In this document: positions 24,424 through 45,715 of the stretch, in pieces
Layout: the number at the start of each line of letters is the position of its first letter
Numbering within the stretch: the stretch's first letter is position 1
Origin: Candidatus Saccharimonadota bacterium
GTDB lineage: Bacteria; Patescibacteriota; Saccharimonadia; CAILAD01; GCA-016700035
NCBI GenBank assembly: GCA_046350755.1
Contig: JAXLZV010000001.1
Span: forward strand, 406,372-470,371
Direction: 5' to 3'
Length of the DNA: 64,000 nucleotides
Position numbers and translations under genes: made by a program
The notes under the pieces: generated by a model
Databases searched by the model: none
Seen by the model: the letters and a program-made list of their open reading frames with translations, nothing else
What the model was told of the DNA's origin: nothing

Positions 24424-26807
24424 TTAGCGTAAACGCCAGGCTCGGATAGACGAGAGCCCCACCCAGATACCGGCGACCGCTAGCGTGATCACGCCGGCCA
24501 ACCACTGAAGGATCGACTGACCCGTATCCGCCAGACCAGACACACTGGTGACGGTGATGTTGGTGGCTAGACTGAATTCACTTGTCGCACCGAAGCCAGA
24601 GGTGGTCGTATTGTTGACGGCTGTAGCAGTAGCGGTGATAGATTTACCGGTGAGATCAGTACCATTTGCTAGGGTTAGAGTAGTTTCTTGGCCACTGCCG
24701 CTATTCACGGTTGCTGATCCCAGGTAGGTTTGTCCCTCACCGTAGCCGGAAGGATCGGCTGAGTCGTTGGCGAAGAACTCCACGCGGTAATTACCATCAG
24801 TACTGTCAGCAGCATCGAGATCAAAGTTAACAGCCAAGGTCGAGTTAGTTTGCGTAGCCGCGTTGATGACCGGGAAGTTTAGGTAGTTGTTGGGGCCGGT
24901 GTCGGGGTCGGCAAAATCGTTAGGGTTTGGTCCCTCGTTGGTAACCGAGAGTGGTAAAAATGTATTTGGATCGAGAACGAAATGCATATCATCAATTCCT
25001 AAGCCAGGCAAAGGCAGTCCGAATGTGTTGCCAATCTGGTTATTGAAGATTTTGTTACCCAATATAGAGTTTCGGGCTGGGGTACCGGTATAGACAGTTG
25101 GGAGTTCGAACTCAGCCGTAATAACGCCTGCCCCCACATTACCAGCAATAATATTTGCCTCTGCTGAATTTACTCCCCCGATGAGATTGTCGTTTGAATC
25201 ACCGTAAATGACGATACCAGAGAACTGCGTAATGGCCGGGTCATAGCTACCACTATCGTTGGTGCCGATATAGTTGCCTTGAATAGTATTATCGTCCGAG
25301 GCAGATCCGAACGGGACTGCCCCATAAATGAGGATGTTCGCATAGCCCGTGTTACCAGAAATGATATTCCGCTGCCCAGCCAAACTGCCGCCAACCGTAT
25401 TGCCAGATGAGAGGAGTAAAGAGATCCCGCTTCCAGTATTATTTTTGATAGTGTTACCACGGATAATCGTGCCAGTTCCACCAATCTGCATGCCGTCTCC
25501 GCCGTTACCCGTAATCGTATTGGAGGTAATCACACCGCCCGTAACACTTCCCTGATTTATGCCGTGCTGCTGGTTATCGCGTATTTGATTCAGGCTGAGA
25601 GTAATATTACTTACACCAGTAGAGCCCAACCCTATGCCGCTATTCAGATTATCGTGAACGATGTTCCCCTCGACAGTTACGTTGGTAACATTCTGGTTGA
25701 GCGAGATCCCGCCTGTTTTCCAGCCAGCCACAAGATTATTTTTGATTGTCGAATTCGTAAGGTTCGAAACTGAGAAACCACTTCCGTTACTGCCGCCTGT
25801 TACGTTCCCCAGTACAGTCGTCCCATCGTAGCCCAGACCGATATAGTTCCCTTCCATAGTCACGTTCGTTGCCTGGTCAGGCGCCAGTCCGTGCCCCAAG
25901 CTAGCTCCGATCACATTTATGGCTCCTGGTTGACTCCCGCCAACGACCACGTCGCTACAATTATCTATTGAAAGCGCCCCGCTTCCAGCATTCGTACTAT
26001 TTGATATCGCCGTGAGTCCATCAGCGGCGACACCAATATAATTACCTTGAAATACCCACCCTGTACTCGGATAACTAGCCGTCGCCGACGACCCCGAAGT
26101 GTTGCCGGAAATTAAATTACGATCAGCCGGATTCAAGCCGCCAACCAAAACATTCTGTGCAATATTGGGGTTCCCAACATAAGTATTAACGCCGACAGTA
26201 TTCGGTCGCGCTGTCGTCCCCGCCGGATTGGTGCCGATATAATTCCCCTGCACCTGTATGTCGTCGGCGAGCAAGCTCAGTGCATCACCTGAACCGTAAT
26301 TATTGATCACCAGACCACGAACCGTACTCCCATCGCTGTTGTTCCGAAAATTCAGACCGTTCGCTGCACCTGCATTAGTTCCATCCAATTCGATCAACAA
26401 GATACCATTCATAGGTAGTGGTGCTGCGGCAGTATTGGCCTGTGCACCAGTCTGCGAATAGCCATTGATGACAACTGGTTCAGTGATGTCTGGAAGTGCT
26501 GAAGTTGGAGCGATGGTATGGCCGTTCTGTCCACCATTCGTGAAGTCAGCTGGACCAGTGATTGCAAAGTTGATCGTGTCTGTGCCCGAGCCAGCCGCAC
26601 ATTCACCAACTGCCGCACCGGAGACAGCATCAGTATTCGCTGAAATGATTGCTTCGCGTAGTGTGCAAGCTCCATCGTTGGCAGCGATATCACCGTTACT
26701 GTTGACCGATAGCGTTGCAGCTGAAGCCCGTCAGCGAATAACACCAACCCAACTGTGGTCATCGCCACCAGCGCCAGCAGGCGCAAGCTAATATTTTTCA
26801 CCCTCAT
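24424..26807 (-). pseudogene. sortase-anchored right-handed beta-helix surface protein with CSLREA-like N-terminal motif; -1 frameshift right after the signal peptide (or sequencing error)
   Basis: Signal peptide MRVKNISLRLLALVAMTTVGLVLFADG in frame A (ATG 26807). Frame B, open from 26730, reads RASAATLSVNSNGDIAANDGACTLREAIISAN... into the 24424-26412 ORF. The switch sits at the CCC/GGG run at 26727-26729. C-terminus LADTG + TM + RLR. Confidence 0.6.
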
Positions 26808-26889
26808 AGTTACTTCTTATTCTACCGAAGCGTAAGCGATAAAAGAAGGGGGCTACTGTAGCTTCACCTCAATCACGATCTATAAAATA

Positions 26890-29193
26890 TCAAGAAACAT
26901 AACGACTATGCATCGAAAGTATTTTCAAGCCAAGCCATAATCCAGACAAAGTGAGCATAATTATGGTAATCACATACCGCCACACACTCTCCCCCGTCGG
27001 CGCCAAACTCGTCGTCGCCAGTCCCACGGGATCTATCACCGTGCCATTGACGAGTCCATCTTGGTCGAGTGGTCCACCGTCAGTGATTTGGTACGTGAGC
27101 TTGAGCATAGACTTACCGTTGTAGTCTTCTCGGGTAATGGTAGCGCCTGGGATGTCGGAGTAGGTTTTGGAGTCTGTCTTGTACTTTCGAGCCGTGTAGT
27201 CAGAAGGGTTACCGGGGAGATCGTAGTAGAGAGTGACGGTCTTAGTAGCTCCGGGGGTGGTGGTGAATTGGAAGGATGTGAGACCAGCCGGATAGCTACC
27301 AGCAGAATCTTTGGGGAGAGACTTGGGATCGATGGCTGAGACGGTAGGACTGGTCACATCACCGGGGAGGACGAGAGTGACGGTCGAACCTTTGACGGGG
27401 TCGGGGTAGGTTAAGGGTTGGCCGGTATTGCCGCCACCATCAGTAGACTGACAGTTGTCGGTAGAGACGTCGTGGTCGCAGAGGATGTCGATAGACCCTG
27501 ATGCCGGCAGGGCAACATAGAGCCTACCATTAGGTCCAACATCCATGCCATAAGGATAATACCGATTTCCTGAAATATCCCTCGCTTCATTACTGTACAC
27601 AGTCTGGTAGATCCCATTTCTATCAAATTTTTGAATACGACCACCTCCGTCTTGCAAAACATCAGAGGCATATATATCTCCACTATTACTTACTGCAATG
27701 CCAAGTAAATAATTAAATTCTCCAGCCGTCGACCCTTCTACACCAAGCTTCATTAAGAAATTGCCGGAGCTATCAAATTTTTGAATGCGGTGATTGCTAG
27801 TATCTCCAACGTACAAATTATCTTGGTTGTCTACCGAAAGGTAAGCCGGTCCATCAGTAGCATCAAATTGACCATTACCGGAACCTTTTGAGCCAAACTG
27901 ATTGAGTAATGTACCCGAACTAGAATACTTATATATTTGACTCGCCGCTTGATTAAACCAGTAAACGTTATCTTGCGAATCGGCAGCAATACCAAAACCC
28001 TCCTCTGGTAGATTCCACGCATCTAGTGTTTGGCCACCATAATTCAACTTTTTCAGCTTTAACAAACCTCCGTCTGCCGCTGCAACTGTATATATATAAT
28101 TTGGTGAAGTCGTGACCATGTAATCAATTTCGGTATTTGATGTCCACGTATCTAGGAACTGACCAGTAAGGCTATACGACACTAATCCTACATCGCCTTC
28201 AAGAAATGGTATATATAATTTATTTCCATGAACTTTAAGAGTATATGCAGTAATAAGATCTTGATTCGTAACGCCGCCAATAATGCTTACAAAATTGCCT
28301 AATGCATCGAACTTTTGAATTCTATTATTATAGGTATCTGCAACATAAATATTGGCACTTGAATCAATCGCTATTCCCCTTGGAGTATCAAACAGGCCCT
28401 CAACTTCACCAATTGAGCCGAACTGCGATTGATATACTCCAGAGCTGTTGAATTTTTGGACACGCGTATTATCTAAAACAAATATATTACCTGTACCGTC
28501 AATTGAAATGCCCGTGGCACCAGAAAATTGCCCATCGCCAGAGCCCTCGGACCCAAATTGCGATTGATATACTCCAGAGCTGTTGAATTTTTGGATGTCG
28601 CTGCTGGTTACAACATAAATGTCGCCATTCAAATCTAGATCTAAGCTATCGGCAGATGCCTCAAATTGTGATTGGTACACACCAGAACTATCAAATATTT
28701 GGACACGATTATTGCCCGTGTCGGCAACGAGCATACTTCCATCGGATTTAATGACTAAGTCACGTGGTAAATTTAACTCACCATTACCGCTACCATAAGA
28801 ACCAAACTGACTCAGATAATTACCCTGACTATCAAACTTTTGAATGCGATGATTATTTGTATCAGCCACATATAGATTGTCTGCAGAATCGGTTGCAATA
28901 CCGTAAGAATATCCAAACTGCCCATCACCAGTGCCGGCAGCTCCAAACATCAGCAGATAATTACCAGAGCTGTCATATTTAATAACACGCCTATGGTTAC
29001 CATCAAACACGTAAATATTATCTTGAGTATCAAGAGCTACATCTTGAGCTTCACTGATTGGGGGTGAGCTATACCCCCCAATATGCCCGATATTAGTAAT
29101 GCCAGTCGCAGCGTGAGCATGACTTGAGAGTGCGAGCATAGCTACTGCAGCAATAGTCAGGGCTGAAAAAGCTTTGGTGAGCTTGGTAATCAT
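26890..29193 (-). CDS. NHL-repeat beta-propeller surface protein, shared C-terminal module + LAPTG sorting signal
   Basis: Signal peptide; repeated YVADTNNHRIQKFD NHL repeats; C-terminal YPAGLTSFQFTTTPGATKTVTLYYDLPG...LAPTG-TM. Confidence 0.8.
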   Translation of the reverse strand: MITKLTKAFSALTIAAVAMLALSSHAHAATGITNIGHIGGYSSPPISEAQDVALDTQDNIYVFDGNHRRVIKYDSSGNYLLMFGAAGTGDGQFGYSYGIATDSADNLYVADTNNHRIQKFDSQGNYLSQFGSYGSGNGELNLPRDLVIKSDGSMLVADTGNNRVQIFDSSGVYQSQFEASADSLDLDLNGDIYVVTSSDIQKFNSSGVYQSQFGSEGSGDGQFSGATGISIDGTGNIFVLDNTRVQKFNSSGVYQSQFGSIGEVEGLFDTPRGIAIDSSANIYVADTYNNRIQKFDALGNFVSIIGGVTNQDLITAYTLKVHGNKLYIPFLEGDVGLVSYSLTGQFLDTWTSNTEIDYMVTTSPNYIYTVAAADGGLLKLKKLNYGGQTLDAWNLPEEGFGIAADSQDNVYWFNQAASQIYKYSSSGTLLNQFGSKGSGNGQFDATDGPAYLSVDNQDNLYVGDTSNHRIQKFDSSGNFLMKLGVEGSTAGEFNYLLGIAVSNSGDIYASDVLQDGGGRIQKFDRNGIYQTVYSNEARDISGNRYYPYGMDVGPNGRLYVALPASGSIDILCDHDVSTDNCQSTDGGGNTGQPLTYPDPVKGSTVTLVLPGDVTSPTVSAIDPKSLPKDSAGSYPAGLTSFQFTTTPGATKTVTLYYDLPGNPSDYTARKYKTDSKTYSDIPGATITREDYNGKSMLKLTYQITDGGPLDQDGLVNGTVIDPVGLATTSLAPTGESVWRYVITIIMLTLSGLWLGLKILSMHSRYVS

Positions 29194-30401
29194 TTCTGCA
29201 AGGCCTTTCGACTCACCCAGACACCACCGGCAATGAGAGTAATTACGCCAAGCATATACGCGGAGAGATTAGTGCCGGTGTTGGCCAAACTGGTAGTCGC
29301 TAGTCCCACGGGATCAATCACGGTGCCATTGGCGAGTCCGTCTTGGTCGAGTGGTCCACCGTCAGTGATGTTGTAGGTCAGTTTAAGCATAGATTTGCCG
29401 TTGTAGTCTTCACGGGTGATGGTAGCGCCTGGGATGTCGGAGTAGGTGCGAGTTGCAGAGTTATACTTCCGAGCGGTGTAGTCAGAAGGGTTACCGGGGA
29501 GATCGTAGTAGAGGGTAACGGTCTTGGTAGCACCGGGGGTGGTGGTGAATTGGAAGGATGTGAGACCAGCGGGATAACTGTAGGCAGAGTCTGCCGAGAT
29601 AGCACTAGCAGCAATAGGGATAATTTGGGGATTGGTGACATCACTGGGGAGGATGAGAGAGACCGGTTTATTGTTAGAAGTACTACCAGTAAGGGGCTGG
29701 GGCGAGCAGTTAGCGTCATCATACGTCAGTTGGACCGACTGTATGGTTGTTTGTGCAATTGTAGTTGATCCGTTAAACCAGTGCTGCACGTAGATCCCTA
29801 GCGTATCTCCTGGAATATACGTGCTCAAATCCCAGGTAGCATCAAGCTGACCGGCTAATCCAAGTGCAGCCGGGAATTCACCGTTATGACCTACTCCACG
29901 ATCAACTGCTGGAGTAGCAAATGGTGCTGGAAACCAAGTATCTAGATCTTCGCCTTTACCATCATTAATTGTGTAATTACTCCTAAATACTAGGCCATCT
30001 GAGCCGCCATATAGTGCAAGAAAAAGCCCGCTCAAAGGTGTTTCATTTTGAGTTTGCGTATCGGTAATAAGCCTCATTGATTGTATTTGCGCACCGTTAC
30101 AGAGAGTCGGCATCGTTATGTGCCACGTATAGACCCAGGGACCGGGTGTATTATTCGAATCAAGACTGTCAGATTGTGTGGTCGTAGTATTTAAGGGTTC
30201 TTTTAACTCCACACCTGTATCGGTTGCCCTTATACCGCCTGCGGTAATATATGGATCGTCATTTGCAATTGTAGTATTGAGCTGAATTGTTTGAGATGCG
30301 GCATGGGTAGGAGCAGCCGCTACTAACATGCCGGTACCGCAGAGTATGGCAAACAATCCAACAGCCGCAATGCGGCGGAAAGCCCTCTGCTTACTTCTCA
30401 T
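29190..30401 (-). CDS. secreted surface protein, shared C-terminal module + LANTG sorting signal
   Basis: Signal peptide; C-terminal module and LANTGTNLSAYMLGVITLIAGGVWVSRKALQK tail; 4-nt overlap with the downstream gene. Confidence 0.7.
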   Translation of the reverse strand: MRSKQRAFRRIAAVGLFAILCGTGMLVAAAPTHAASQTIQLNTTIANDDPYITAGGIRATDTGVELKEPLNTTTTQSDSLDSNNTPGPWVYTWHITMPTLCNGAQIQSMRLITDTQTQNETPLSGLFLALYGGSDGLVFRSNYTINDGKGEDLDTWFPAPFATPAVDRGVGHNGEFPAALGLAGQLDATWDLSTYIPGDTLGIYVQHWFNGSTTIAQTTIQSVQLTYDDANCSPQPLTGSTSNNKPVSLILPSDVTNPQIIPIAASAISADSAYSYPAGLTSFQFTTTPGATKTVTLYYDLPGNPSDYTARKYNSATRTYSDIPGATITREDYNGKSMLKLTYNITDGGPLDQDGLANGTVIDPVGLATTSLANTGTNLSAYMLGVITLIAGGVWVSRKALQK

Positions 30402-30499: not shown

Positions 30500-31447
30500 T
30501 TAAGGGCTGGGTGTTGACTGCGGGGAGACATCCGGCGATTCGGTCGGTGAAGGCGTGGATGGTGACGCCGTGGGCGATGGTGACGACGGCACAGGCTTCG
30601 GGCTCGGCTTAGGTACTTTCGGAGACTGAGATGGCGAAAAGTTTGGCAACTTAAAGAGTAGCTTACGAAGCTGCTCGGCTTGTGCTGGTGTCAGCGGCTT
30701 AGACGGTGTAGTCCCCTTAGCTATCGGTGCATTTGGAGCTTGTTGTGACTTACCCGACGTTGACTGTTGCCATTTCTCTGGGCCATCCTTGGTGGTAGCC
30801 TCGATCACAATCCGCCCATCAGCCGAGCCACCCAGCGAGCAGCTATAAAGTGTTAGCTTCGAGGTTTCGCTGGGCGCCTCGATTTCCGTCGCATTCGGCT
30901 TCACACTATACTTCTTTGTCACCGTGTAGGTATACCATTTACCCTTGAAGAATATCCGCATCGTATCACCCTCTTTGAGCTTGTCCAGGTTATAAAATGG
31001 TGAACGTTTCTTCGTCTCGGCTGGCGTGGTACCAATACTAAAACGATGGGCTGAGAGGATGAAGTTACCTCCCTGCTCTGGATCGCCACGATCCGGATAA
31101 CGGTGCCACGAGCCCTTATCAAGCTCCTCTGGACCGCCGGTGAAGAATGGTACCTCAAGATTAATTTTCTCGATTTGGATGCGATCGCGATTATCAGTTG
31201 CATCGTCGGCTGTATTCAGATCGATCTCCGACTTACCAGCCAGTATCGGCAGCTGTGGGGTAAGCAACAAGTACGCCATATAGAGACCAGCTGCAATTAA
31301 GCCGATCGAAAGGGCTAACAGGAGTCCTCGCTTGCGCTTGGATACTTTTCTGGCAGGTCGATGTGGCAGTCCTGCGCCGGATTGATCATTTGGCAGTATG
31401 TGCCTGCGTTTGCGCGAACGAAAAAGCTGCGGTTTCTTTACTTTCAT
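30500..31447 (-). CDS. sortase (class E-like) with Pro/Ser-rich C-terminal tail
   Basis: N-terminal TM, catalytic His in ILSAHR, TLxTC-type Cys motif LTLYSCS, C-terminal (SP/TP)n tail. Confidence 0.85.
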   Translation of the reverse strand: MKVKKPQLFRSRKRRHILPNDQSGAGLPHRPARKVSKRKRGLLLALSIGLIAAGLYMAYLLLTPQLPILAGKSEIDLNTADDATDNRDRIQIEKINLEVPFFTGGPEELDKGSWHRYPDRGDPEQGGNFILSAHRFSIGTTPAETKKRSPFYNLDKLKEGDTMRIFFKGKWYTYTVTKKYSVKPNATEIEAPSETSKLTLYSCSLGGSADGRIVIEATTKDGPEKWQQSTSGKSQQAPNAPIAKGTTPSKPLTPAQAEQLRKLLFKLPNFSPSQSPKVPKPSPKPVPSSPSPTASPSTPSPTESPDVSPQSTPSP

Positions 31448-31634: not shown

Positions 31635-33044
31635 ATGGCTACACCTGCACCGAAAACTGTTTTATTAGTGCCATTTAGCTCGAATGATCAATCACGGATC
31701 CTGATTTGGCAGCATGTCCATAGTTGGCTCACGCAAACTTTGGATTACCCACTCTACCTAGGTGAACATTTTCCTGAAACTCCAGGCACCTATAACCTCA
31801 GTCTCGCCCGCAACCTCGCAGCCCAGAAAGCTGGTGACTGGGAAGTGGCGGTTATCCATGATGCTGACACGGTCATTAACCCACAGCAGATTACCGCCGG
31901 TGTGGCCGCCGCCTATGAAACGGGTGCCGTCACCTACCCCTACACTGAGCGCTGGGAACTAGACTTTACCGGCACGAAAATGTTGCTCAGCGACGAAACC
32001 AGCAAATGGCAGCAATATATGACACCATATGCACACAATCAACCGCTTGGTGGTTGTATCATTGTGCGTCGGGACTTATGGGAGCTAGTACGTGGTTTTG
32101 ACACTGGCTTTGTGGGCTGGGGCCACGAAGACGGCGCGTTTGCGATTGCCTGTCAGGTTTTGAGCGGCAAACTGTTGCAGCGCATCCCCGGCAAATCATT
32201 GCATCTCGAACACGTCTTGGCACCGGCCAAGCGACCAGACAATCCTATCTATCGTGCTAATAAGGCACGCATCGACCAATATATACAGGCTGGCGACCAG
32301 CCGAATGGGTATGAGCTCATCCGGAAACTGCGTGATGCGTCCATTGCAACCGATCAAGCAAGCGGTATTCACTGGTCACCAAATGAATCTGAAAACAAGG
32401 GCATGAATACCACCACTGCCCTCATGCTCTTGCGCGATGTAGCGGCAGTACTCGAGAAGTATCAGTGTACTCATTGGCTGAGTGATGGCACCTTGCTTGG
32501 TACGATGCGCGAGAATGATTTCATCGCCCATGATGATGATGTCGACCTCGGTGTATGGGCGGCGGACTTTGATATCCGCGTCATCCACGAACTCATCAAT
32601 AGATATGGTTGCAGAATAGTCAGGCTACAAGGCACGCCAGATGACGGTATGATCATCTCCGTACAACGACTTACCGTTCATCTGGATATGTTTTTCTATT
32701 ATCCCCTAGCAAAGTCAGAGAAAGGACATCCGTCAGCAAAAATCTACCACAGCATCTATTTTCTCGAAAAACCTTACAATACATCGAATAAAGCCAGACG
32801 ATACAATTGCGTGTACCCAGATTTCAAACCACTAGTGCGGCGTAGCTTTAAAGGCCATGAGTTTTGGGTACCCGAAAATGCCAAGCAGCATTTGGTCGCT
32901 GCCTATGGTAAGGACTGGAGAAAACCACAGCCAAATTGGGATACCGAGAAAGATCAGCCTAATCTCGTGCGGCATGGCACCGCCAGTGATATGGCAGCCG
33001 ACCGACAGCAGGTTGAACAGTTTCTCAAAATACGTCGACTATGA
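31635..33044 (+). CDS. bifunctional GT-A glycosyltransferase / LicD-family phosphotransferase fusion (copy 1)
   Basis: N-terminal GT-A: HDADTV (DxD), GGCIIVRRDLWELVRGFDTGFVGWGHEDG. C-terminal LicD: WLSDGTLLGTMRENDFIAHDDDVDLGVWAADFD. Confidence 0.75.
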   Translation: MATPAPKTVLLVPFSSNDQSRILIWQHVHSWLTQTLDYPLYLGEHFPETPGTYNLSLARNLAAQKAGDWEVAVIHDADTVINPQQITAGVAAAYETGAVTYPYTERWELDFTGTKMLLSDETSKWQQYMTPYAHNQPLGGCIIVRRDLWELVRGFDTGFVGWGHEDGAFAIACQVLSGKLLQRIPGKSLHLEHVLAPAKRPDNPIYRANKARIDQYIQAGDQPNGYELIRKLRDASIATDQASGIHWSPNESENKGMNTTTALMLLRDVAAVLEKYQCTHWLSDGTLLGTMRENDFIAHDDDVDLGVWAADFDIRVIHELINRYGCRIVRLQGTPDDGMIISVQRLTVHLDMFFYYPLAKSEKGHPSAKIYHSIYFLEKPYNTSNKARRYNCVYPDFKPLVRRSFKGHEFWVPENAKQHLVAAYGKDWRKPQPNWDTEKDQPNLVRHGTASDMAADRQQVEQFLKIRRL

Positions 33045-37499: not shown

Positions 37500-38449
37500 A
37501 TGCCGCCACAACAGATCAAAACCTATCGTATGCTACATTCGAAGTGTTACAGTATGCCGTCACCCAAGACGGAGTAGATCCGGCCGATAGTAGCCATGAG
37601 ACCTTGGGTCTAAGTAAAACCGATAGAGATTTCGCCATCAAACAGCTTATTCATAAAGGATTGTTGCGTAAGACCGGCCGCATCCTCCGAGCCACCGCCG
37701 CCGCACAGTCGGCCCTCGAGCCATACCGAGTAAAGCGCGCCGTAATTTTAGCAGCCGGACGTGGTGAACGTCTGCGACCAGAAACCGACACTACCCCAAA
37801 ACCAATGGTACACGTACACAGTAGACGTCTCATCGAAACGCAGCTTGATGCTCTGGCCGCCGCTGGCATCCGTGACATCACAATTGTACGTGGGTATAAG
37901 GGCGAGCTGTTTGATGTGTTGTTGGAGACATATCCGCACATCAAGTTTATCGATAATCCTCGTTGGGACAGTACTGGAGAGATTATCTCGGCATCGTTAG
38001 TTATCGACTATCTCGCTGGCGCCTACCTCATCGAAGGTGATTTGTATATTCGCAACCCGGCCGTGCTGCGACCATACGAGTATCGCAGTTCATGGTGCGG
38101 AAAGCCCGGCGCGACCCACAATGACTGGTACTTTTCGGTCGACCAGAAGCAAAAAATTCACGCCCTCGCTTTTGGAAATACACAAGGTCAGCACGACTAC
38201 ACGTATGTTGGTATTGAATACTGGGCACCCCCAGAAGCCCGCCAGCTCAAGTTTGATCTGCAGACAGTATTACAAACTCCAGCTAACCAGCAAGGCTTTA
38301 TTGAATCTATCCCGTTTGATCCCATATATGGTACCTACAATATCTATGCCAGGCGATTGCTAGATGGTGATGTTACAGAAATCGACACACATGCAGAGCT
38401 GCTGGCATTGCGGGATCGTGAGCATCGCGAACCAGCTTTTCGGCCATAA
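37496..38449 (+). CDS. LicC-like nucleotidyltransferase with N-terminal extension (copy 2)
   Basis: Paralog of 33041-33973; AVILAAGRGERLRPETDTTPKPMV; divergent N-terminus FEVLQYAV...LSKTDRDFAIKQLIHKGLL (wHTH-like). Confidence 0.75.
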   Translation: MNAATTDQNLSYATFEVLQYAVTQDGVDPADSSHETLGLSKTDRDFAIKQLIHKGLLRKTGRILRATAAAQSALEPYRVKRAVILAAGRGERLRPETDTTPKPMVHVHSRRLIETQLDALAAAGIRDITIVRGYKGELFDVLLETYPHIKFIDNPRWDSTGEIISASLVIDYLAGAYLIEGDLYIRNPAVLRPYEYRSSWCGKPGATHNDWYFSVDQKQKIHALAFGNTQGQHDYTYVGIEYWAPPEARQLKFDLQTVLQTPANQQGFIESIPFDPIYGTYNIYARRLLDGDVTEIDTHAELLALRDREHREPAFRP

Positions 38450-38471
38450 CCTTTTCCCAGCACATATCTAT

Positions 38472-41400
38472 CTACAAAACTGATAGTTTTGTAGACGCGA
38501 GAGTGAGGCCAAGGCCTGCGAGGATGAGAGAGCCCATGGCGCAGAGATACGCCCAAGTACTCTCCCCCGTCCCCGCCAAACTCGTCGTCGCCAGTCCCAC
38601 GGGGTCCACAATCGTGCCATTAGCAGTGCCGTCTTGGTCAAGTGCTCCACCGTCAGTGATGGAATAAGTGAGTTTGACGGCGTGTTGGCCACCGATCGTG
38701 ACGTCGGTGAGGGCGGCTCCGGGAATATCTGAGTAGGTGCGACTGGTCGCATTGTACTTGCGAGCTGTGAATGAGTTTGCTCGCGCATCGGTATAGAAGT
38801 AGAGTTCTACGGGGATAGTAGCTCCTGGAGTCGTGGTAGCGGTGAAAGAGACGAAGCCTAGAGGATAGTCTTTCCCCTTATCTTGGGTTGAGAAGGAGCG
38901 AGCTTGTTCAATGATAGTGGCATCAATGGTGACACCATTCGGAACTACGAGGGTAATGTAGCGCCCGTCGGCATTGGGGAGTGACGTGACGTTAGATTGC
39001 TGAGCGTCTGGGGTGCCATCATTGTTACCGTCTCCATTGTTGGGAGCTGCGTTTTCGATGGTGTCGGGGATGGTGTCGGTGTCGGAGGAAGTAGGGGCAG
39101 CACCGTATATCAGATTAAAAATATTGTTAGAAGCTATTGAGTAAAGTGGCGTCCCAGTCTGAACAGCCTCAAATAAAGCCTGAATGTCCGGCTCTTGGTC
39201 AAAACTATCATGTATCAGCGCACCACGAAGAGTATTATTGCCTACTGCAAAGTCTGAGGTAGCAATCAGGCTTAAGCTTAAGGTCAGCTCAGTGGTGCTT
39301 GGGAGGACAGCATTACTAAATCGTACCTCGCAGATTACCAGATCTTCAGAGTAAGGAGCGAAGGCAGGAATGGAGTCTACTTGATTCATAGGACCAACAT
39401 CTGCACACCCAGTGGTATATAAATCATTGGGAGAAATAGAAACACTATCATATGTTGTATTGGTGGGAAGGTTGAAGTAAATAATTACTCCATCACCGGC
39501 AAAGTAACCAGGGCCAAGGTTCTTGAGATTCACTTCGTAGTTGGCAGTATCGCCGGATGTAATTGGTTGAGCATTGAGGAGTTTGGCGGTAAGACTGAGG
39601 TCGGTTTGCTCGGGACACGGCAGAGTGAAAGTTCGGTCTTCGCCATAGGCACGACCAGCTGAGTTTTCGGCATAAGCACGGTAATGATATGTGGTGCCAC
39701 ATGTAAGATCGTAAAGGTATGCATTACTATCCGTGTTAACCCCATAATAACTACCAGTACTCGTGGCGCCATAACTATTATCGAGGCCGTACTCGACACC
39801 AGTGCTGGGAATCTCATTACCTTCATCTGTGACCATATACTTAATTCTGGCAGAAGTACCTTGCGAGTTCTCGCGAGTGGCTGAGCCGGTATTGATAACT
39901 GGAAGGCTCGGGCAGGCGGATGTCGTAAAAGTTGCGTCATCCCCATAAGTTACAGCCTCATTGTTTATGGCGTAGGCGTGGTAATGATAAGTAGCGTTAC
40001 AATCCAAATCTGCAATATTAGCGCTGAAATCACCTGAGTTAGTTGTCTGGGTAAATATTTGGATTCGATTATATGTAGTATCGGACAGAATGAGTTGTCC
40101 TTGATTATTCATCGTTAGTCCAACAACGAAATCAAACCCACCAGCGCTCATTGTTTGCTGACCCCATTTGGTGATAAAAGTCCCACTTTCATCAAATATC
40201 TTCATGCGTCGGTTCTCCGTATCAGAAACAAACACATATCCTTGCGGACTTGTAGCCAAGCTTACGGGCAGAATAAACTGACTATCGCCTGAGCCCTGCG
40301 ATCCCCACTTGAGCATAAAGGCTCCATTGTTATCGAACTTTTGAACGCGATTATTGTTGCGATCAGCTACATAGAGATTATTTGAGGTATCAACAGCTAT
40401 CCCATACGGCAGATTAAACTGTCCATCATTACTCCCGAGAGTACCCCATTGGCTAACATATGATCCTGAGCTATTAAACTTCTGGATACGATTATTTTGA
40501 GTGTCGGCGACAAACATATTCCCATTTGAATCCACGGCAATGCCATAGGGGCTTGAGAGCTGTCCATTCCCAGACCCCGACGTGCCAAATTTGCTGATAA
40601 ACATTCCTGAGCTATTAAACTTCTGGATACGATTATTCGCGGTATCAACAACGTATATATTATTTGAAGAGTCGATTGCTAGACCTGTTGGGTTATCGAA
40701 CTGACCATCGCCCGAACCAGACGATCCCCATTGGGTTATATATGAGCCATTGCTATCAAACTTCTGGATACGATTATTATTACGATCAGCTACATAAATA
40801 TTATTTGAGGTGTCAGTGACGACTCCATAGGGGTGACTAAACTGACCATTAAGAGATGGATTGTGACCCCATTGCAAGAGATAGTTACCGCTGTTATCAA
40901 ACTTCTGAATGCGACCATTCTCATTATCACCAACGTATACATTGCCAGAAGAGTCTACCGTAATGCCGCGGGGCCCGGAGGCGAACTGATTATTACCTGT
41001 TCCGACAGACCCCCACTTGAGAATGAAGCTCCCGCTACTATCAAATTTTTGCACATTCGTACCATAAAGATCGAGCACAAAGATATTGCCCGAAGAATCT
41101 ACAACAAGGTTTATAGGTGCAATAAACTGACCATCGCCCGAACCAAAAGATCCCCATTTCAGAATAAAGGCACCATTGCTGGTAAATTTTTGGATACGTC
41201 GATTATCAATATCAACTACATACACGTTATTAGATGAGTCGATAGCTAGGTCAACAATGCTTCCAAATTGCCCATCACCACTGCCCTGCGACCCCCATTG
41301 GGTAAGTAAATTATCATTTGCATCATATTTCTTGATAGTGTGATTATTCGAATCGGCAACATAGATATTATTGGCAGAGTCCACTGTAATACAGCCGGTG

Positions 41401-41951
41401 GCAATATTCAGCTGACGAATAAATGAACCTGATGAATCGTATTTATAGATATGCTGTGAATAACCATCAACAACATACACATTATCCAGCGAGTCCACGG
41501 CTATACAGTTGATAGTGCTAAAGACATTAATGTCTCCCCATGCGGTAATAAAATTCCCAGAAGAATCAAATTTTTGGATACGCCGGTTGTAACTGTCAGC
41601 TGTATAGACATTACCGTTACTGTCGGTTGCAACATCGGTAGCAAACATAAACTGCCCTTGAGCACTTGGGTCATTGCCCCACTGCTTCAAGTATGGATAA
41701 TTTACTGGTACATCTTCATCGGCACTATTGGTATATGTGTTAGTCAAGCCATACTCAAACCCGCGCTTCGTAATCGGACTCGTACCGGCACTGGGTGCTG
41801 AGCCATTGAGAGTTCCCGAGTTCGCGCTTAGATTAGTAGCATTGTTGGTAGTGACGGTCGGAGCCGCGGCATGAGCATGACTTGCGAGTGCGAGTGTGGC
41901 GATGGCTGCAAAGGTTAGCACTGAGAAGGCTTTGGTGAGTTTGGTCATCAT
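38472..41951 (-). CDS. giant NHL-repeat beta-propeller surface protein (1159 aa), variant C-terminal module + LAGTG sorting signal
   Basis: Signal peptide near-identical to that of 26890-29193; many YVADRNNNRIQKFD repeats; LAGTG-TM. Confidence 0.8.
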   Translation of the reverse strand: MMTKLTKAFSVLTFAAIATLALASHAHAAAPTVTTNNATNLSANSGTLNGSAPSAGTSPITKRGFEYGLTNTYTNSADEDVPVNYPYLKQWGNDPSAQGQFMFATDVATDSNGNVYTADSYNRRIQKFDSSGNFITAWGDINVFSTINCIAVDSLDNVYVVDGYSQHIYKYDSSGSFIRQLNIATGCITVDSANNIYVADSNNHTIKKYDANDNLLTQWGSQGSGDGQFGSIVDLAIDSSNNVYVVDIDNRRIQKFTSNGAFILKWGSFGSGDGQFIAPINLVVDSSGNIFVLDLYGTNVQKFDSSGSFILKWGSVGTGNNQFASGPRGITVDSSGNVYVGDNENGRIQKFDNSGNYLLQWGHNPSLNGQFSHPYGVVTDTSNNIYVADRNNNRIQKFDSNGSYITQWGSSGSGDGQFDNPTGLAIDSSNNIYVVDTANNRIQKFNSSGMFISKFGTSGSGNGQLSSPYGIAVDSNGNMFVADTQNNRIQKFNSSGSYVSQWGTLGSNDGQFNLPYGIAVDTSNNLYVADRNNNRVQKFDNNGAFMLKWGSQGSGDSQFILPVSLATSPQGYVFVSDTENRRMKIFDESGTFITKWGQQTMSAGGFDFVVGLTMNNQGQLILSDTTYNRIQIFTQTTNSGDFSANIADLDCNATYHYHAYAINNEAVTYGDDATFTTSACPSLPVINTGSATRENSQGTSARIKYMVTDEGNEIPSTGVEYGLDNSYGATSTGSYYGVNTDSNAYLYDLTCGTTYHYRAYAENSAGRAYGEDRTFTLPCPEQTDLSLTAKLLNAQPITSGDTANYEVNLKNLGPGYFAGDGVIIYFNLPTNTTYDSVSISPNDLYTTGCADVGPMNQVDSIPAFAPYSEDLVICEVRFSNAVLPSTTELTLSLSLIATSDFAVGNNTLRGALIHDSFDQEPDIQALFEAVQTGTPLYSIASNNIFNLIYGAAPTSSDTDTIPDTIENAAPNNGDGNNDGTPDAQQSNVTSLPNADGRYITLVVPNGVTIDATIIEQARSFSTQDKGKDYPLGFVSFTATTTPGATIPVELYFYTDARANSFTARKYNATSRTYSDIPGAALTDVTIGGQHAVKLTYSITDGGALDQDGTANGTIVDPVGLATTSLAGTGESTWAYLCAMGSLILAGLGLTLASTKLSVL

Positions 41952-44221
41952 GTCTGCAGCGCCTTTCGGCTGAGCCAGACACCACCGGCAATGAGAGTAA
42001 TTACGCCAAGCATATACGCGGAGAGATTAGTGCCGGTGTTGGCCAAACTGGTAGTCGCTAGCCCGACGGGATCGACGATCACGCCATTATCAGCACCGTC
42101 ATCATCGAGTTCGCCACCATCGGTGATTGAATACGTCGCGACCAAGGCCTGAGCGGAGCCAACTGTCTGCGAGGCAATGTTCGAGCCAGGCACATCACGA
42201 TACTGGCCGGTGATGTCATTGTATTTACGGAGCGTGAAGGCAGATGGCACGTCTGACACAAACACATACTTCGTAATGTTGACGGTATCACCGCGTGAAC
42301 AGTTGAGACTAAAATCAGTTAGACCATAGGGATAGGCTTTACCAGCATCTTTATTGGTAATAGTCGAAGCGTCAATCGAGGCGACTGTGCCGTTCTCGGA
42401 GCGGCCTTCGGTCACAAACGTCTCCCACTTGCCGGTCGAGTCGATCTCGAAACTGGTGACAGTCGGCTGCAGCCGATCGGCAGTGCCATCATTATTGCCG
42501 TCTCCATTATTAGGGGCGCCATTTTCAACTGAGTCAGCGATACCATCCGAATCAAAGTCACTAGCCGAACCGACAGAGATGTTTTGCGAGAGCTCGCTGG
42601 TTGAGCCGTAGCCAGAGAGTGTCGAGTCGTCGATAGCGGTCGTCGTAGCCGAGAGTGCCTTATTCGTATAGTCTCCTGAGACGGTGAAGGTTGCCGTCTT
42701 ATCTGTACCATTCCCGGTTGAGGCGACGGCACCAAGATATTCCTGTGCCGGCCCGGCACCAAAGACCGTACTCTCGTCGTTGACGAAGAACTCCACGCGG
42801 TACGTATTACTGGGTGAATCAGCTGCATCAAGATCATAGTGAATGGTCAGTTGATTGCCGATCTGCTGAACGGACTTGAGGACTGGTTTATTCATGAGAT
42901 TATTGGGGCCGGTATCGGCATCACCGGTGTCATTGGGTGTGGGGCCTTGACCAGTGAATGAGTCTGGACCATTTTGATTTGGTGCTCCAACATACACCGA
43001 TGTACTGAGATCGATAGCGAGATTACTGTTGCCAAAATTTGGATAATTAAACACCAGCATATCGCTTACTTTGTTACCGAGTATTGAGATATTGGTCGGT
43101 TTTAAAACCATTTGAAAAGCTTGTATATTCATCCCTAAAACCGATATGCCAAGACCACCAACTGCTCGGACTGTATTGCCCTCACCTGATCCAACGCCAC
43201 CAATAAGCACATCGTGAGCCATATAGGTCACAACAATCCCACCACCATTTGTAATGCCGCTATTCTTCTCCCCCGTATAGTCAGTGCCGATGTAGTTACC
43301 TTGGACTTTCGTATCCGATCCGCCGGTAATAGTGATCTGAGCAGTTGTTGAGCCAGAAAGAACATTCATTTGCCCCTGCAATGGCCCACCAACAGTATTA
43401 TTACTACCCGTGTTATCTAGGCTAAAAGTCGTATCAAGGTCAGTTACACCATCTTTGGCGATCCCAAAATAGTTCCCGTACACAAAAGTATTAGTTCCCC
43501 CGATTTGACTGCCAGGACCATAGCTAGTTTTGCTGGCGATGACGTTGCGCTGAGCCGCTGTTGCACCACCGATATACAAATCACTACCACTACTATATGC
43601 AGCAATTGCTTCAGTTTCTTCTCCGTTTGAATTGTAGCGCGATTGCATGCCCGTTATATCAGTGTTGATATAAAGCCCTTCGATCCTAACGTCAGAGGCG
43701 CCATTTACTTCGATCTGCGAATGACCAAAGCCATGGATTGCAATGCCGCGGACCATGCTAGCCCCAGCACCACTGTTAAATAGCAGCCCTTTTTCGCTCC
43801 GATCCATACCCGAGCCATCGAGCTCAATGGTTAGATTGGAGTTGAGCGGAGCTGGTGCAGCCGCGGTATTCGCGCTCGAACCAGGCTGCGAGAAGCCATT
43901 AATATCCACCTGATCATCAACCTTTGGCCAATTACTAGCTGTAGGCGAAATCGTGTGTACCCCACTGCCGGGGATATTGAAATTAACCGTGTCAGCGCCA
44001 ACATTGGCGTTAGCTTCTTCGATCGCCGCACGAAATGTACACTCTCCGGTATTGACCGTCTCACAAATTCCATCCCCTGGATTCGCATCGGCTTCATCAG
44101 TCGTGACGTTGACGACGAACGTGGCTGGTGCGGCATGCGCCGAGTGCGCAAACAAGAAAATCGATGCCAAACTCGTAAGCACCAAATAGACAATTTTTTT
44201 CGGTATCTGTTTAGAGGTCAC
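41948..44221 (-). CDS. sortase-anchored beta-helix surface protein with CSLREA-like motif, shared C-terminal module + LANTG
   Basis: Signal peptide; GICETVNTGECTFRAAIEEANA; 3' end near-identical (DNA level) to 29190-30401. Confidence 0.75.
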   Translation of the reverse strand: MTSKQIPKKIVYLVLTSLASIFLFAHSAHAAPATFVVNVTTDEADANPGDGICETVNTGECTFRAAIEEANANVGADTVNFNIPGSGVHTISPTASNWPKVDDQVDINGFSQPGSSANTAAAPAPLNSNLTIELDGSGMDRSEKGLLFNSGAGASMVRGIAIHGFGHSQIEVNGASDVRIEGLYINTDITGMQSRYNSNGEETEAIAAYSSGSDLYIGGATAAQRNVIASKTSYGPGSQIGGTNTFVYGNYFGIAKDGVTDLDTTFSLDNTGSNNTVGGPLQGQMNVLSGSTTAQITITGGSDTKVQGNYIGTDYTGEKNSGITNGGGIVVTYMAHDVLIGGVGSGEGNTVRAVGGLGISVLGMNIQAFQMVLKPTNISILGNKVSDMLVFNYPNFGNSNLAIDLSTSVYVGAPNQNGPDSFTGQGPTPNDTGDADTGPNNLMNKPVLKSVQQIGNQLTIHYDLDAADSPSNTYRVEFFVNDESTVFGAGPAQEYLGAVASTGNGTDKTATFTVSGDYTNKALSATTTAIDDSTLSGYGSTSELSQNISVGSASDFDSDGIADSVENGAPNNGDGNNDGTADRLQPTVTSFEIDSTGKWETFVTEGRSENGTVASIDASTITNKDAGKAYPYGLTDFSLNCSRGDTVNITKYVFVSDVPSAFTLRKYNDITGQYRDVPGSNIASQTVGSAQALVATYSITDGGELDDDGADNGVIVDPVGLATTSLANTGTNLSAYMLGVITLIAGGVWLSRKALQT

Positions 44222-44261: not shown

Positions 44262-44287
44262 TTAGAATTCTACTTCTTAACTAGAGG

Positions 44288-45715
44288 CTACAATCCAAGA
44301 GATTCGTTGAGAGCTTGCTGGGTCGTAACGACCGTGATGCCGGAGTTTTTCACCAGCTGGAGCTGACGCTGCAGAGTAGCTGGGCTGACACTCCAAGCGT
44401 TCTTATTGTCACCGGCGAGCTCATGCCACACGAGGGTCAACCAGCCATTCGAAGCTTTTGCAGCATTGAGCTGCGCGACCAGCTCGGCGTCAGTCGTCGT
44501 ATTCAGGACAATGAAGCTATTGAGGTTATAACGATCAAAGTTAGCTTTCGTATTGGCGACCGCCTCACAGTTGCGTGATGCCTGATAGAGGGTCTTAGCG
44601 ACACTGACAACCGTGGCATTACTCTCGCAGTACGGTGTAGCCAGCAAACGAGTTGGCTCCCCCAGCAATCCATCGAGATAGCTCTTGCTGGCCGTCAGCT
44701 CATTGGTCATCTGCGTAAGCGACAGACTAGGCAGGCTGGGATGCGAGATAGTATGGCTTCCGATATCACCGCGCAGATTCCAATCCTTGATCTGGGCCGG
44801 GGTCATATAAGTACCCGTACCATAGTTGGCATTATTGATGGCTGTATCAGTAATGATGTACTGCGTTGGTCGCCAGCCGAAGCTCTCGACAAGTGGCAAG
44901 CCATTCTGATAAGCAGTCGTCCAGCCGTCGTCAAACTCAATCGAGACTAATGGTCGCGAGAATGGCTGATTGGTAGCTGGCGGTGCGGGTGTCGTTGGCA
45001 CCGGTGATGGTGGTGGTGTGGTTGGTACTGGTGTAGTTGGGGCCGGTGAAGTTGGCACCGGGGTCGTCGGTACTGGGCTGGTAGGCACTGGAGTGGTTGG
45101 TGCAGGGGTCGTTGGAGCCGGAGTTGTGGGCACCGGGGTCGTTGGAACTACGCTACCCTGTTTTTCGAGATTAAATTCGTCGGTCTGCAGCCAGCCATTG
45201 CGAGCAATCAGATGATAAGCTGTCATCGATTTTGCACCCTGCGGAATGGTGATAGTGTATTTGACCTGTTTCCACGTAACAACACTAGCGGCCACGTCAC
45301 CTAGCCAGAGATACTTTGTCGATCCATCTGCCATCACAACCTCAACATCAACTTCAGTCTTGACATTCGATTTATACCAGTTGGAGTAGCTTAACGTCTC
45401 ACCGCCCTGGACAGCAACTGGAGCTGACTGCCAACGAGCGTCCCCTGATCGTCGATTAGATACGGTGACTTTAGCCGACTTTGTGCCAGTCTGCGCGTCG
45501 CCAGATACAATCGAGTAACTCTTCGTCATATTGCCCCAGCTTTCCGTGGTCCAATTAGTCGCCGTGTTACCGCTAGTGGTTTCAAATGAATTATTCGTTA
45601 TAAGATTGCTAGCCGCCTGTGCGTTTGAGATAAAGATCGCAAATGTAGCGATAGCCAGCACAATGACACCGAGTAGTTTAGCTTTCATAATGTTACTCCA
45701 AATCGTAAGTTTCAA
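44288..45715 (-). CDS. secreted polysaccharide deacetylase (CE4/NodB) with N-terminal carbohydrate-binding-like domain and PT-rich linker
   Basis: Signal peptide; (PTTPxPT)n linker; NodB motifs SIEFDDGW and GSHTISHP. Confidence 0.75.
   Translation of the reverse strand: MKLTIWSNIMKAKLLGVIVLAIATFAIFISNAQAASNLITNNSFETTSGNTATNWTTESWGNMTKSYSIVSGDAQTGTKSAKVTVSNRRSGDARWQSAPVAVQGGETLSYSNWYKSNVKTEVDVEVVMADGSTKYLWLGDVAASVVTWKQVKYTITIPQGAKSMTAYHLIARNGWLQTDEFNLEKQGSVVPTTPVPTTPAPTTPAPTTPVPTSPVPTTPVPTSPAPTTPVPTTPPPSPVPTTPAPPATNQPFSRPLVSIEFDDGWTTAYQNGLPLVESFGWRPTQYIITDTAINNANYGTGTYMTPAQIKDWNLRGDIGSHTISHPSLPSLSLTQMTNELTASKSYLDGLLGEPTRLLATPYCESNATVVSVAKTLYQASRNCEAVANTKANFDRYNLNSFIVLNTTTDAELVAQLNAAKASNGWLTLVWHELAGDNKNAWSVSPATLQRQLQLVKNSGITVVTTQQALNESLGL

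Follow-up and report, generated by a model that had tools for sequence, protein, structure and literature searches.

Saccharibacteria live attached to host bacteria, and the construction of their surface is poorly known. A 64-kb stretch of DNA from one of these organisms, Candidatus Saccharimonadota bacterium (hereafter the window, to whose coordinates all positions refer unless another locus is named), raises the question of what is made by a two-gene cassette that occurs twice within an island of surface-protein genes at 24424-45715. In each copy, a predicted enzyme that fuses a glycosyltransferase (GT) of the GT-A type to a LicD-type phosphotransferase domain is followed by a LicC-like cytidylyltransferase with an N-terminal winged helix-turn-helix (wHTH) domain, and a gene for a sortase-anchored protein, chQ, stands between the copies. 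The answer tentatively favoured here, a little short of an even call, is that the genes form a Saccharibacteria-specific, self-contained module for the decoration of surface glycoconjugates, present twice in this cluster of a sortase and proteins with LAxTG sorting signals, and that its acceptor is a lipid-linked glycan or a glycolipid.

Two parts of this answer, as read from the predicted proteins, are established in silico: a CDP/CMP-donor synthase and a bifunctional sugar/phospho-group enzyme are present and coupled to each other, and the GT-bearing enzyme keeps a persistent link to a gene whose product is a beta-helix or fibre protein of the surface. We infer the identity of the donor, the sugar, the acceptor and a role in host contact. 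The genes concerned are as follows.

31635..33044, forward strand: cassette 1, gene 1, predicted cytoplasmic bifunctional GT-A::LicD enzyme (GT-A at residues ~1-245, LicD/FKRP-type domain at ~255-469)
33041..33973, forward strand: cassette 1, gene 2, winged helix (residues 1 to ~75) and LicC-like cytidylyltransferase (~76-310), matched by NTP_transferase/NTP_transf_3
34161..36050, forward strand: chQ, a choice-of-anchor-Q protein of 629 aa (NCBIfam choice_anch_Q 2e-22, choice_anch_U 1.7e-15)
36093..37499, forward strand: cassette 2, gene 1, paralogous GT-A::LicD enzyme (Pfam LicD 1e-8, Glyco_transf_7C 6.6e-6)
37496..38449, forward strand: cassette 2, gene 2, paralogous wHTH and LicC-like cytidylyltransferase, matched by NTP_transferase/NTP_transf_3

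The GT-A::LicD fusion enzyme

The fusion of a GT with a LicD domain, put forward in an original prediction made from the letters of this DNA, has been confirmed as real. Both copies of gene 1 exceed the Pfam gathering scores for LicD and Glyco_transf_7C. For LicD (PF04991) they score 36.2 and 36.0 bits, where 22.6 is the gathering score, in a match that covers profile positions 2-40 of 227; the remainder of the domain was assigned through an AlphaFold model and its match to FKRP, in which the nucleotidyltransferase (NTase) fold was recognized. This model, built with 26 homologs, reached a pLDDT of 90.6 and a pTM of 0.88. The N-terminal half is assigned to inverting, beta4GalT (GT7)-like enzymes by its profile match and GT-A fold, and its motifs D76-A-D78 and G161-W-G-H-E165-D166 are invariant in 26/26 family members, GWGHED (161-166) aligning to WGWGGEDD of B4GalT1. 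In the LicD half, H-D300-D-D302-V-D304-LG aligns to D360-Y-D362-V-D364 of FKRP, and D351, in an HLDMFF motif, was set against FKRP D416 by its spacing from D304 only (47 residues vs 52 in FKRP), not by alignment. These four FKRP residues were chosen for alanine mutagenesis, according to a figure legend of PMC6965139 that names the mutants and does not state their activities. The acidic residues D300/D302/D304 and D351 are conserved in the family except in copies without a LicC partner, and all catalytic motifs of the cassette 2 enzyme (DAD, GWGHEDG, HDNDVDLG) are intact. The function proposed for the LicD domain is transfer of a phospho-group onto a glycan hydroxyl.

The architecture is not unique: other proteins are known that fuse GT2 with LicD, and in FKRP, too, a (dead) GT-A-like domain precedes LicD. 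The N-terminal stem of FKRP, as described in PMC6965139, has a GT-A-like fold resembling ppGalNAc-T10, lacks a catalytic motif and is judged inactive; FKRP and the fusion therefore have a common GT-A plus LicD layout, in which the GT-A half looks active only here, with D-x-D and E-D invariant. The likeness to FKRP/fukutin and ISPD, which use CDP-ribitol to place tandem ribitol-phosphate on alpha-dystroglycan's O-mannosyl glycan, extends to the aligned D-x-D-x-D, a partner nucleotidyltransferase for a CDP donor and two paralogs in succession. The window partner, however, is LicC-like and not IspD-like, and the window proteins are cytoplasmic and bacterial, whereas FKRP and fukutin are type II membrane proteins of the Golgi. 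Common ancestry is unproven because identity is only ~22% over 200 residues. Among more distant proteins, two are GT2+LicD fusions, and one (P0227) combines LicD with a PntC-like domain and an aminotransferase.

A second comparison is offered by Mycoplasma fermentans, in which, as is generally known, Mf1 and Mf3 produce phosphocholine-glucosyl-diacylglycerol (GGPL) by a GT step followed by LicD-type phosphocholine transfer. Mf1 is the best NCBIfam match of the window LicD domain, but its 54.5 bits lie far below the cutoff of 225, so the domain is not a member of that family. In Mycoplasma the two activities reside on separate proteins, and a lipid acceptor is only proposed for the window enzyme.

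The fused family comprises 37 full-length members with 49-82% identity among 5.8e9 clusters, and only two 50%-identity representatives among 1.84e9 proteins; all fused members lie on Saccharibacteria-type contigs. Stand-alone relatives of the GT (~230 aa) and of LicD (~200 aa) are abundant, with 10,967 matches in the search of 1.84e9 proteins, and multi-stretch matches of the exhaustive search, considered as further GT-LicD fusions, were rejected as GT-GT tandems. A tiny fused family restricted to one lineage, together with synteny to an LxxTG gene in nearly every relative examined, indicates that this is no widespread teichoic-acid locus of the housekeeping kind, a case in which the original prediction would have failed. 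Neither a signal peptide nor a transmembrane (TM) segment was found in the cassette enzymes, which are predicted to be cytoplasmic, so that direct action on exported proteins would not be straightforward. The suggestion in the original prediction that the island makes and decorates a surface layer, with a possible part in attachment to a host, is a tentative reading.

The LicC-like enzyme and the activated donor

The two genes of cassette 1 overlap by 4 nt (31635-33044 / 33041-33973). The product of gene 2 matches Streptococcus pneumoniae LicC (1JYK) best among solved structures, at E 4e-22 by single sequence and 1.1e-39 by family profile (positions 70-301, nearly full length), followed by Tde-PntC at 2.5e-20. 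A phmmer search of its C-terminal 110 aa against the PDB was uninformative, and the family profile resolved the assignment. In the family-profile alignment, whose numbering was checked against PMC6697681, the G-x-G-x-R loop is kept as AAGRGERLRP, the metal ligands E216/D218 of LicC correspond to E294/D296 (E294-x-D296 vs E216-I-D218), W136 to W211, and Y190 to F267, where the aromatic character is kept. The pair D105/D192 is changed, to E180/E269. In Tde-PntC, Glu104/Glu196 at these positions contact the primary amine of 2-aminoethylphosphonate (AEP), and the smaller Asp side chains of LicC have been suggested to make room for choline (PMC6697681). The enzyme is filed as LicC-like and not as a phosphocholine enzyme because the Asp pair of the choline pocket is Glu180/Glu269, and these residues weakly suggest that the head group is an amine smaller than choline. 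The LicC/LicD pairing noticed in the original prediction stands, whereas a donor other than phosphocholine is the better guess.

The winged helix had gone unnoticed before. Some homologs give MarR/TrmB-type Pfam matches in this region, and in one source a member is annotated as 'winged helix-turn-helix transcriptional regulator'; the NCBI annotation pipeline PGAP names the cassette proteins 'LicD family protein' and 'phosphocholine cytidylyltransferase family protein'. The nearest wHTH-LicC homologs outside the candidate phyla radiation (CPR) belong to Lactobacillaceae and are full length, with 38-41% identity. In a Wzx-type exopolysaccharide (EPS) cluster of the Lactobacillus johnsonii type (L054/L055, 9069-15218), the homolog lies directly after LicD and before a 591-aa NTP-transferase/choline-kinase fusion, which is followed by an amino-acid permease and an ornithine-cyclodeaminase (OCD)-family gene, so that one decoration locus holds two nucleotidyltransferases. 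When the choline-kinase fusion, the permease and the OCD protein were used as tblastn queries for LicA/LicB-type partners, only the NTP-transferase parts were recovered from the 64-kb window; the reported lack of a choline kinase or transporter near the cassettes is thereby borne out.

It is very improbable that the cassettes serve an ordinary phosphocholine teichoic-acid (lic) pathway as in S. pneumoniae, with the proximity of sortase substrates being incidental. Such a pathway would explain why LicC is the best structural match and why PGAP chose its names, and the lic systems of S. pneumoniae and Haemophilus influenzae do pair a LicC-type cytidylyltransferase (1JYK, 1e-39) with a LicD-family phosphotransferase in adjoining, translationally overlapping genes. 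LicC's metal ligands are retained here, as is its aromatic box, and the two LicD paralogs recall LicD1/LicD2. Yet neither a LicA kinase nor a LicB transporter is found in the window, its LicD is fused to an active-looking GT-A domain, its LicC carries the winged helix and has Glu/Glu in place of the choline-accommodating Asp105/Asp192, and the fused family is tiny and limited to one lineage. Moreover, synteny with chQ is kept where the flanks otherwise differ, so that the conserved neighbour is a sortase-anchored beta-helix protein and not a set of teichoic-acid genes. No TagO/TagF/TagGH-type genes were seen adjoining, and the ABC-2 transporter near the island gives DrrB-type efflux family matches with scores under the family cutoffs.

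The Glu pair could also point to phosphonate tailoring, in which gene 2 would be a PntC-type AEP cytidylyltransferase and LicD would install AEP on a surface glycan; this is improbable as well. E180/E269 match the amine contacts E104/E196 of Tde-PntC (PMC6697681), which is the second-best PDB match (2.5e-20), the LicD-domain relative P0227 is fused to a PntC-like domain and an aminotransferase, and in PntC systems, too, a LicD-family partner and a cell-surface destination are found. On the other side, a regular-expression search for the phosphoenolpyruvate (PEP) mutase motif EDKxxxxxNS in all six frames of the 64-kb window gave no match, overall similarity to LicC is much stronger than to Tde-PntC, and Glu/Glu also occurs in the Lactobacillus homologs that lie beside a choline-kinase-family fusion. 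The enzymes Ppm/Ppd/AEPT are unlikely in an epibiont genome of ~0.65 Mb, though AEP could be scavenged.

Coupling of the two enzymes and age of the duplication

Relatives were collected by a one-genome-per-species scan, which gave about 17 Saccharibacteria loci (labelled with L-numbers), mapped by ORF (open reading frame) and BLAST analysis and by individual contig look-ups. The motif D-x-D-x-D is kept in 15/15 GT-LicD genes that have an adjoining LicC gene and is lost in 3/3 that have none, while the GT motifs are intact in all copies. The decayed LicD motifs are the following.

L004 copy 2, 10001-11404, and L018, 3-968: NSKNTA/NSKDTV
L017, 9998-11383: THELF

The three losses represent two independent events, and of all the in-silico evidence for a supply of the LicD domain by LicC, this co-loss is the strongest. 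It indicates, at the level of sequence motifs, that GT activity would be the core of the module and phospho-transfer a dispensable decoration. The decayed copies of L004, L018 and L017 look like pseudo-LicD domains kept on an active GT.

The two window cassettes are 74% identical in DNA, and their proteins 73% (GT-LicD) and 70% (LicC). In a neighbour-joining tree, copy 1 and copy 2 each group with their counterparts from L004, L006 and L018, and the duplication therefore predates these genomes. The ratio of nonsynonymous to synonymous divergence (dN/dS) between the copies is 0.14 for GT-LicD and 0.23 for LicC, with dS about 1, so both copies have been maintained. A recent duplication or an assembly artefact was rejected on these grounds, namely the 74% identity, the dS value and the orthologous copy-1 and copy-2 clades elsewhere. 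Promoter- and terminator-like sites at 30300-38700 are not above shuffled expectation in number, and the operon structure of the island is consequently read from gene spacing and overlaps only.

The same data bear on the notion that there is no functional system at all and that unrelated sugar genes were duplicated by chance in a recombination-prone cluster of surface paralogs. It is suggested by the repetition of anchor modules and of gene pairs, whose copies are 75-90% identical in DNA, by one frameshifted gene, and by the unremarkable number of promoter- and terminator-like sites. Since both cassettes are under purifying selection and older than the species, the order of the three genes is kept down to 47-59% protein identity across contexts, and the co-loss of LicC and the LicD site argues for a working pathway, this notion is highly improbable.

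The partner protein chQ and the conserved gene order

The protein chQ begins with a signal peptide and a CSLREA-like N-terminus, continues with a beta-helix (aa ~85-365), choice_anch_Q (394-448) and choice_anch_U (456-590), and ends in LADTG and a TM segment. The choice_anch_Q match (NF041518) scores 79 bits against a cutoff of 25. The family has ~50 members, on Saccharibacteria-type contigs, with a conserved N-terminal part of ~450 aa and variable stalks of choice-of-anchor U or Big_13/Big_6. An AlphaFold2 (AF2) model with a pLDDT of 80 displays a confident right-handed beta-helix at aa 85-365, a C-terminal beta-sandwich and a TM helix. The choice-of-anchor-Q motif (aa 394-448; 35340-35504), with invariant residues that include D429, R435, D442, G444 and E447, is the most conserved stretch of chQ and has a pLDDT of ~30-37; a binding partner or a ligand may be needed for it to fold. 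The matches of the model in Foldseek searches, with E-values of 1e-4 to 1e-2, were polygalacturonases, polysaccharide lyases, and tailspikes and depolymerases of phages, so the model indicates that chQ would belong to the carbohydrate-binding or -cleaving beta-helix class, and nothing more specific.

The order chQ, GT-LicD, wHTH-LicC, with gaps of 0-60 nt, recurs among the relatives. The gene for chQ lies directly upstream of the cassette, or downstream of copy 1, at window cassette 2 and at L001, L002, L004/L007, L006, L008, L009, L012, L013, L014, L017 and L059. Flanking genes differ at every one of these triad loci, and the order is kept down to 47-59% protein identity across genomic contexts. 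Among the relatives, a position of the sortase beside the cassette is confined to the closest ones (L004/L007, L021). The tight linkage to LAxTG substrates that the original prediction saw accordingly applies to one family of sortase substrates, chQ, and does not extend to the sortase or to LAxTG proteins generally.

Other CPR-type contigs carry a split module, in which a divergent LicC is followed by LicD, a protein here called X, and the GT (L025, L056/57, L058).

L056, 7042-11536: split module
L058, 622-4309: split module
L025, 6964-10711: split module

X has 324-416 aa, a Gly-rich segment and the N-terminus MARLPxPGSDDGTWGAVLNxFL. Searches of chQ and X against PHROGs and Pfam for phage-related matches gave a single weak tail-fibre match, that of X to phrog_2282 (2e-6). 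Since hmmsearch and hhalign comparisons of X with the chQ family detected no homology, the partner protein is not one family across the module variants. In L056, a 279-aa protein follows the split module.

A proposed pathway and its acceptor

In the decoration pathway proposed here, the wHTH-LicC-like enzyme would first join CTP and a phospho- or phosphono-amine into a CDP- or CMP-activated donor, whose head group, such as phosphoethanolamine or an AEP-like compound, would probably be less bulky than choline. The GT-A domain would then place a beta-linked hexose or N-acetylhexosamine (HexNAc) from a UDP-sugar on the acceptor at the cytoplasmic face of the membrane, and the LicD domain of the same polypeptide would cap that sugar with the phospho-group. 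The two diverged paralogs may serve two acceptor sites or two successive steps, as do LicD1/LicD2 and fukutin/FKRP. The acceptor would most likely be a lipid-linked envelope glycan or a glycolipid that is exported later, and the sortase-anchored, tailspike-like chQ may bind, carry or process the exported glycan on the cell surface. Close to an even chance is given to a lipid-linked acceptor, in favour of which are all that is known of bacterial LicD enzymes, the EPS cluster in which the nearest wHTH-LicC/LicD pair lies, and the presence of glycan-assembly genes in the window. The fold of chQ, that of beta-helices which bind or cleave carbohydrates, points the same way.

Several observations weigh against this pathway. 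The 64-kb window holds no kinase, no transporter and no PEP mutase from which the phospho-amine might come, and the substrate was read from two pocket residues, a weak indication. The Foldseek matches of chQ are generic beta-helix matches with modest E-values. None of ~12 loci has a priming GT, a polymerase, a flippase or an LCP ligase beside it. The sole partner that is not an enzyme is in every case fibrous or of the beta-helix type, and direct modification of a protein would account for this no less well. In L020 chQ is followed by a GT-only gene, so that the adjacency of chQ and GT persists without LicD and LicC. In the split loci, X, which lies between LicD and GT, has no signal peptide.

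Direct protein modification, in which the cytoplasmic GT-A domain would glycosylate chQ before Sec export, LicD would add the phospho-amine and the sortase would anchor the product, is rather unlikely but draws on these same facts: a self-contained module always beside a fibrous or beta-helix gene with no flippase or priming GT nearby, a GT-chQ adjacency that outlives the loss of LicD and LicC (L020), and a split-locus partner with a weak tail-fibre match and no signal peptide. The absence of signal peptides and TM segments from the cassette enzymes agrees with it, as does the fact that FKRP, with the same two-domain layout, acts on a protein-linked glycan. Cytoplasmic glycosylation of beta-helix adhesins, followed by Sec export, is known from HMW1C/HMW1, Aah/AIDA-I and TibC/TibA, in each of which a soluble GT gene adjoins the gene of an exported right-handed beta-helix adhesin. 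These GTs belong to other families (GT41, heptosyltransferases) and work without a phosphotransferase step, and protein modification in the window is only proposed. For Clostridioides difficile flagellin, PMC10714395 gives GlcNAc-phospho-N-methylthreonine as the modification.

Within chQ, the triplets N244-x-T246 and N288-x-T290 are invariant and 20 NxS/T sequons occur where ~11 are expected, a suggestive pattern that is nevertheless common in beta-helix turns; conserved Asn-x-Thr is often structural there, the sequons exceed expectation by no more than about 2-fold, and paralogs that lack a cassette give similar values. Known bacterial LicD enzymes, furthermore, use lipid-linked glycans or glycolipids, and action on a protein glycan is not known for any of them; the closest wHTH-LicC/LicD homologs outside the CPR lie in an EPS cluster; and no chQ gene stands upstream of cassette 1. 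The fuller version, in which GT-A::LicD and LicC modify an adhesin with hexose-phospho-amine before export, as a counterpart and possibly a relative of FKRP/fukutin-ISPD, and the adhesin acts in contact between epibiont and host, is unlikely. If true, it would be the first case of a bacterial LicD acting on a protein-linked glycan, with a GT-A domain that is still active.

The sortase and the anchored proteins of the island

Including chQ and the cassettes, the island holds 12 envelope-related genes: a sortase, six LAxTG proteins, a deacetylase and the two two-gene cassettes. The coordinates given for all island ORFs in the original prediction proved correct, and of the families that it had proposed to search for, Pfam matches were obtained for Sortase, LicD, NTP_transf_3, NHL and Beta_helix. 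The remaining genes are as follows.

24424..26807, reverse strand: frameshifted CSLREA/right-handed beta-helix surface protein with LADTG, TM segment and basic tail (Pfam Beta_helix 1.3e-12, NosD)
26890..29193, reverse strand: NHL-repeat beta-propeller surface protein, 767 aa, choice-of-anchor-U, LAPTG (Pfam NHL 1.2e-40; NCBIfam choice_anch_U 1.4e-16)
29190..30401, reverse strand: secreted protein, 403 aa, choice-of-anchor-U, LANTG (NCBIfam choice_anch_U 1.8e-17)
30500..31447, reverse strand: membrane-anchored sortase, 315 aa (Pfam Sortase 3.4e-17, 62.8 bits vs cutoff 26.6)
38472..41951, reverse strand: large NHL-repeat beta-propeller surface protein, 1159 aa, choice-of-anchor-U, LAGTG (Pfam NHL 1.1e-74; NCBIfam choice_anch_U 5e-18)
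41948..44221, reverse strand: CSLREA/beta-helix surface protein, 757 aa, choice-of-anchor-U, LANTG (choice_anch_U 1.2e-15, CSLREA_Nterm 5e-5)
44288..45715, reverse strand: secreted polysaccharide deacetylase, 475 aa, with a Pro/Thr-rich linker (Pfam Polysacc_deac_1 2.9e-19)

The sortase gene is transcribed divergently from cassette 1. Its product has a TM segment at aa 42-62, His133 in LSAHR (aa 131-135), Cys203 in TLYSC (aa 199-203) and Arg212 in DGRIV; the His and Cys motifs that had been described are present, except that the residue before Cys is Ser and not Thr. The assignment to class E had to be rejected. The NCBIfam class E model NF033747 scores 42.2 bits against a cutoff of 160, the class D and class C models score about alike (40-41 and 34 bits), all far under their cutoffs, and the best PDB matches are of class D/C/A, the Actinomyces oris sortase being a weak one (4e-4). 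There is nonetheless a likeness to the class E systems of Actinobacteria, such as A. oris SrtA and its substrate GspA, in that six LAxTG substrates lie near a membrane-anchored His/Cys/Arg sortase and the anchored GspA is a glycoprotein; glycosylation of an Actinomyces LAxTG protein is reported in a work cited in PMC11623550 (its ref. 126). A difference is the C-terminal tail of ~95 residues, rich in Pro/Ser/Thr, that follows the catalytic domain of the window sortase (aa ~220-315; 30500-30790). It is unusual for sortases and is kept in the L004 ortholog.

An LA(D/P/N/G)TG motif with a hydrophobic stretch and a basic tail ends six proteins, those at 24424, 26890, 29190, 34161, 38472 and 41948, and not five as first counted; one of them is frameshifted. 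A regular expression for this signal, run over all stop-to-stop segments of at least 100 aa in six frames of the whole window (n=127), found it in 6/127 segments, all inside the island. As no other such tail occurs among the 127 segments, the clustering is not due to chance. Directly before the sorting signal, five of the six carry a choice_anch_U domain (NCBIfam NF041766, 57-66 bits vs cutoff 32), and the frameshifted gene gave no NCBIfam match. The seventh protein of the seven credited with a signal peptide, the deacetylase at 44288-45715, is indeed secreted, and it has no sorting signal; ORF 24424-26412, by contrast, has no signal peptide itself. In that gene the overlapping ORF 26409-26807 carries the signal peptide, and 24424-26412, in a different frame, encodes the mature part. 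Three-frame translation and tblastn with the paralog at 41948-44221 place the CSLREA domain in frame with 24424-26412, and because signal peptide and CSLREA domain sit in different frames, a one-base frameshift is placed near 26733, where the sequence reads GCTGACGGGCTTCAGCTGCAACG. It is either a genuine pseudogene or a consensus error of the metagenome-assembled genome (MAG).

Repetition is common among these genes. The C-terminal anchor modules (choice-of-anchor U, LAxTG and TM segment) of otherwise different proteins share 75-90% DNA identity, on both strands.

26976-27416, 29268-29592, 35527-35967, 38565-38738 and 41862-42127: repeated C-terminal anchor modules

This identity suggests concerted evolution or cassette shuffling of the anchors. 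A unit of two genes, a LANTG protein and an NHL propeller with a 4-nt overlap, also occurs twice (29190-30401/26890-29193 and 41948-44221/38472-41951): the stop of 29190-30401 overlaps the start of the NHL gene at 26890-29193 by 4 nt, and this junction recurs at 41862-42127 with 82% identity. The beta-helix proteins at 41948-44221 and 24424-26807 are paralogs by tblastn. At 44999-45154, seven copies of a 15-nt tandem repeat encode the (P-T/V-P-T-T) linker of the secreted deacetylase; such linkers are typical O-glycosylation sites in Actinobacteria.

Genes flanking the island

Outside the island, the window consists of housekeeping genes. To the left lie pyrF, comEC, rimK, a Mur ligase, dnaJ/dnaK/grpE/hrcA, lepA, murJ, ftsH and tilS, and to the right divIC, DUF2207, the DrrB-type ABC-2 transporter, GalU-like, bactofilin, lexA, DUF2079, Wzy_C-like and GT2 genes.

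50275-51189: GalU-like UDP-glucose pyrophosphorylase
60453-63979: DUF2079 membrane protein, Wzy_C/O-antigen-ligase-like protein and GT2, consecutive genes at the window's right end

These genes are candidates for a glycan pathway whose product the cassette might decorate. Unrelated to the cassette island, three genes adjoin at 5337-8163. They encode a putative Zn protease (PF05618), a RimK-like ATP-grasp ligase and a MATCAP-like carboxypeptidase-domain protein, a set that may perform ligation and trimming of peptide tails.

Novelty and implications

The superfamily of each protein is known already, and so are GT+LicD fusions and LicC/LicD pairing as themes. New are the GT7-like::LicD fusion family, the wHTH-LicC partner with its Glu/Glu pocket, the conserved saccharibacterial triad that includes a sortase-anchored, tailspike-like protein, the ancient pair of paralogous cassettes and the co-decay signature. 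No paper linking LicD to Saccharibacteria or to Patescibacteria/CPR/TM7 was found in the literature searched, for CPR/TM7 among the ten top-ranked papers, and a Cell 2023 paper on the genetic manipulation of Patescibacteria makes no mention of sortase, glycosyltransferase or teichoic.

A bacterial protein with the layout of FKRP and a catalytic-looking GT-A half bears on the origin of the dystroglycanopathy enzymes. If the acceptor is a wall polysaccharide only, the module would be a modest extension of the logic of lic/teichoic decoration. For Saccharibacteria, the module is a compact, lineage-specific trio of an anchored tailspike-like protein, a transferase for a sugar and a phospho-group, and a donor synthase, which may shape the surface that contacts the host. 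Its conservation across divergent genomes, together with the co-loss of LicC and the LicD site, provides targets for genetics and mass spectrometry in cultivable relatives.

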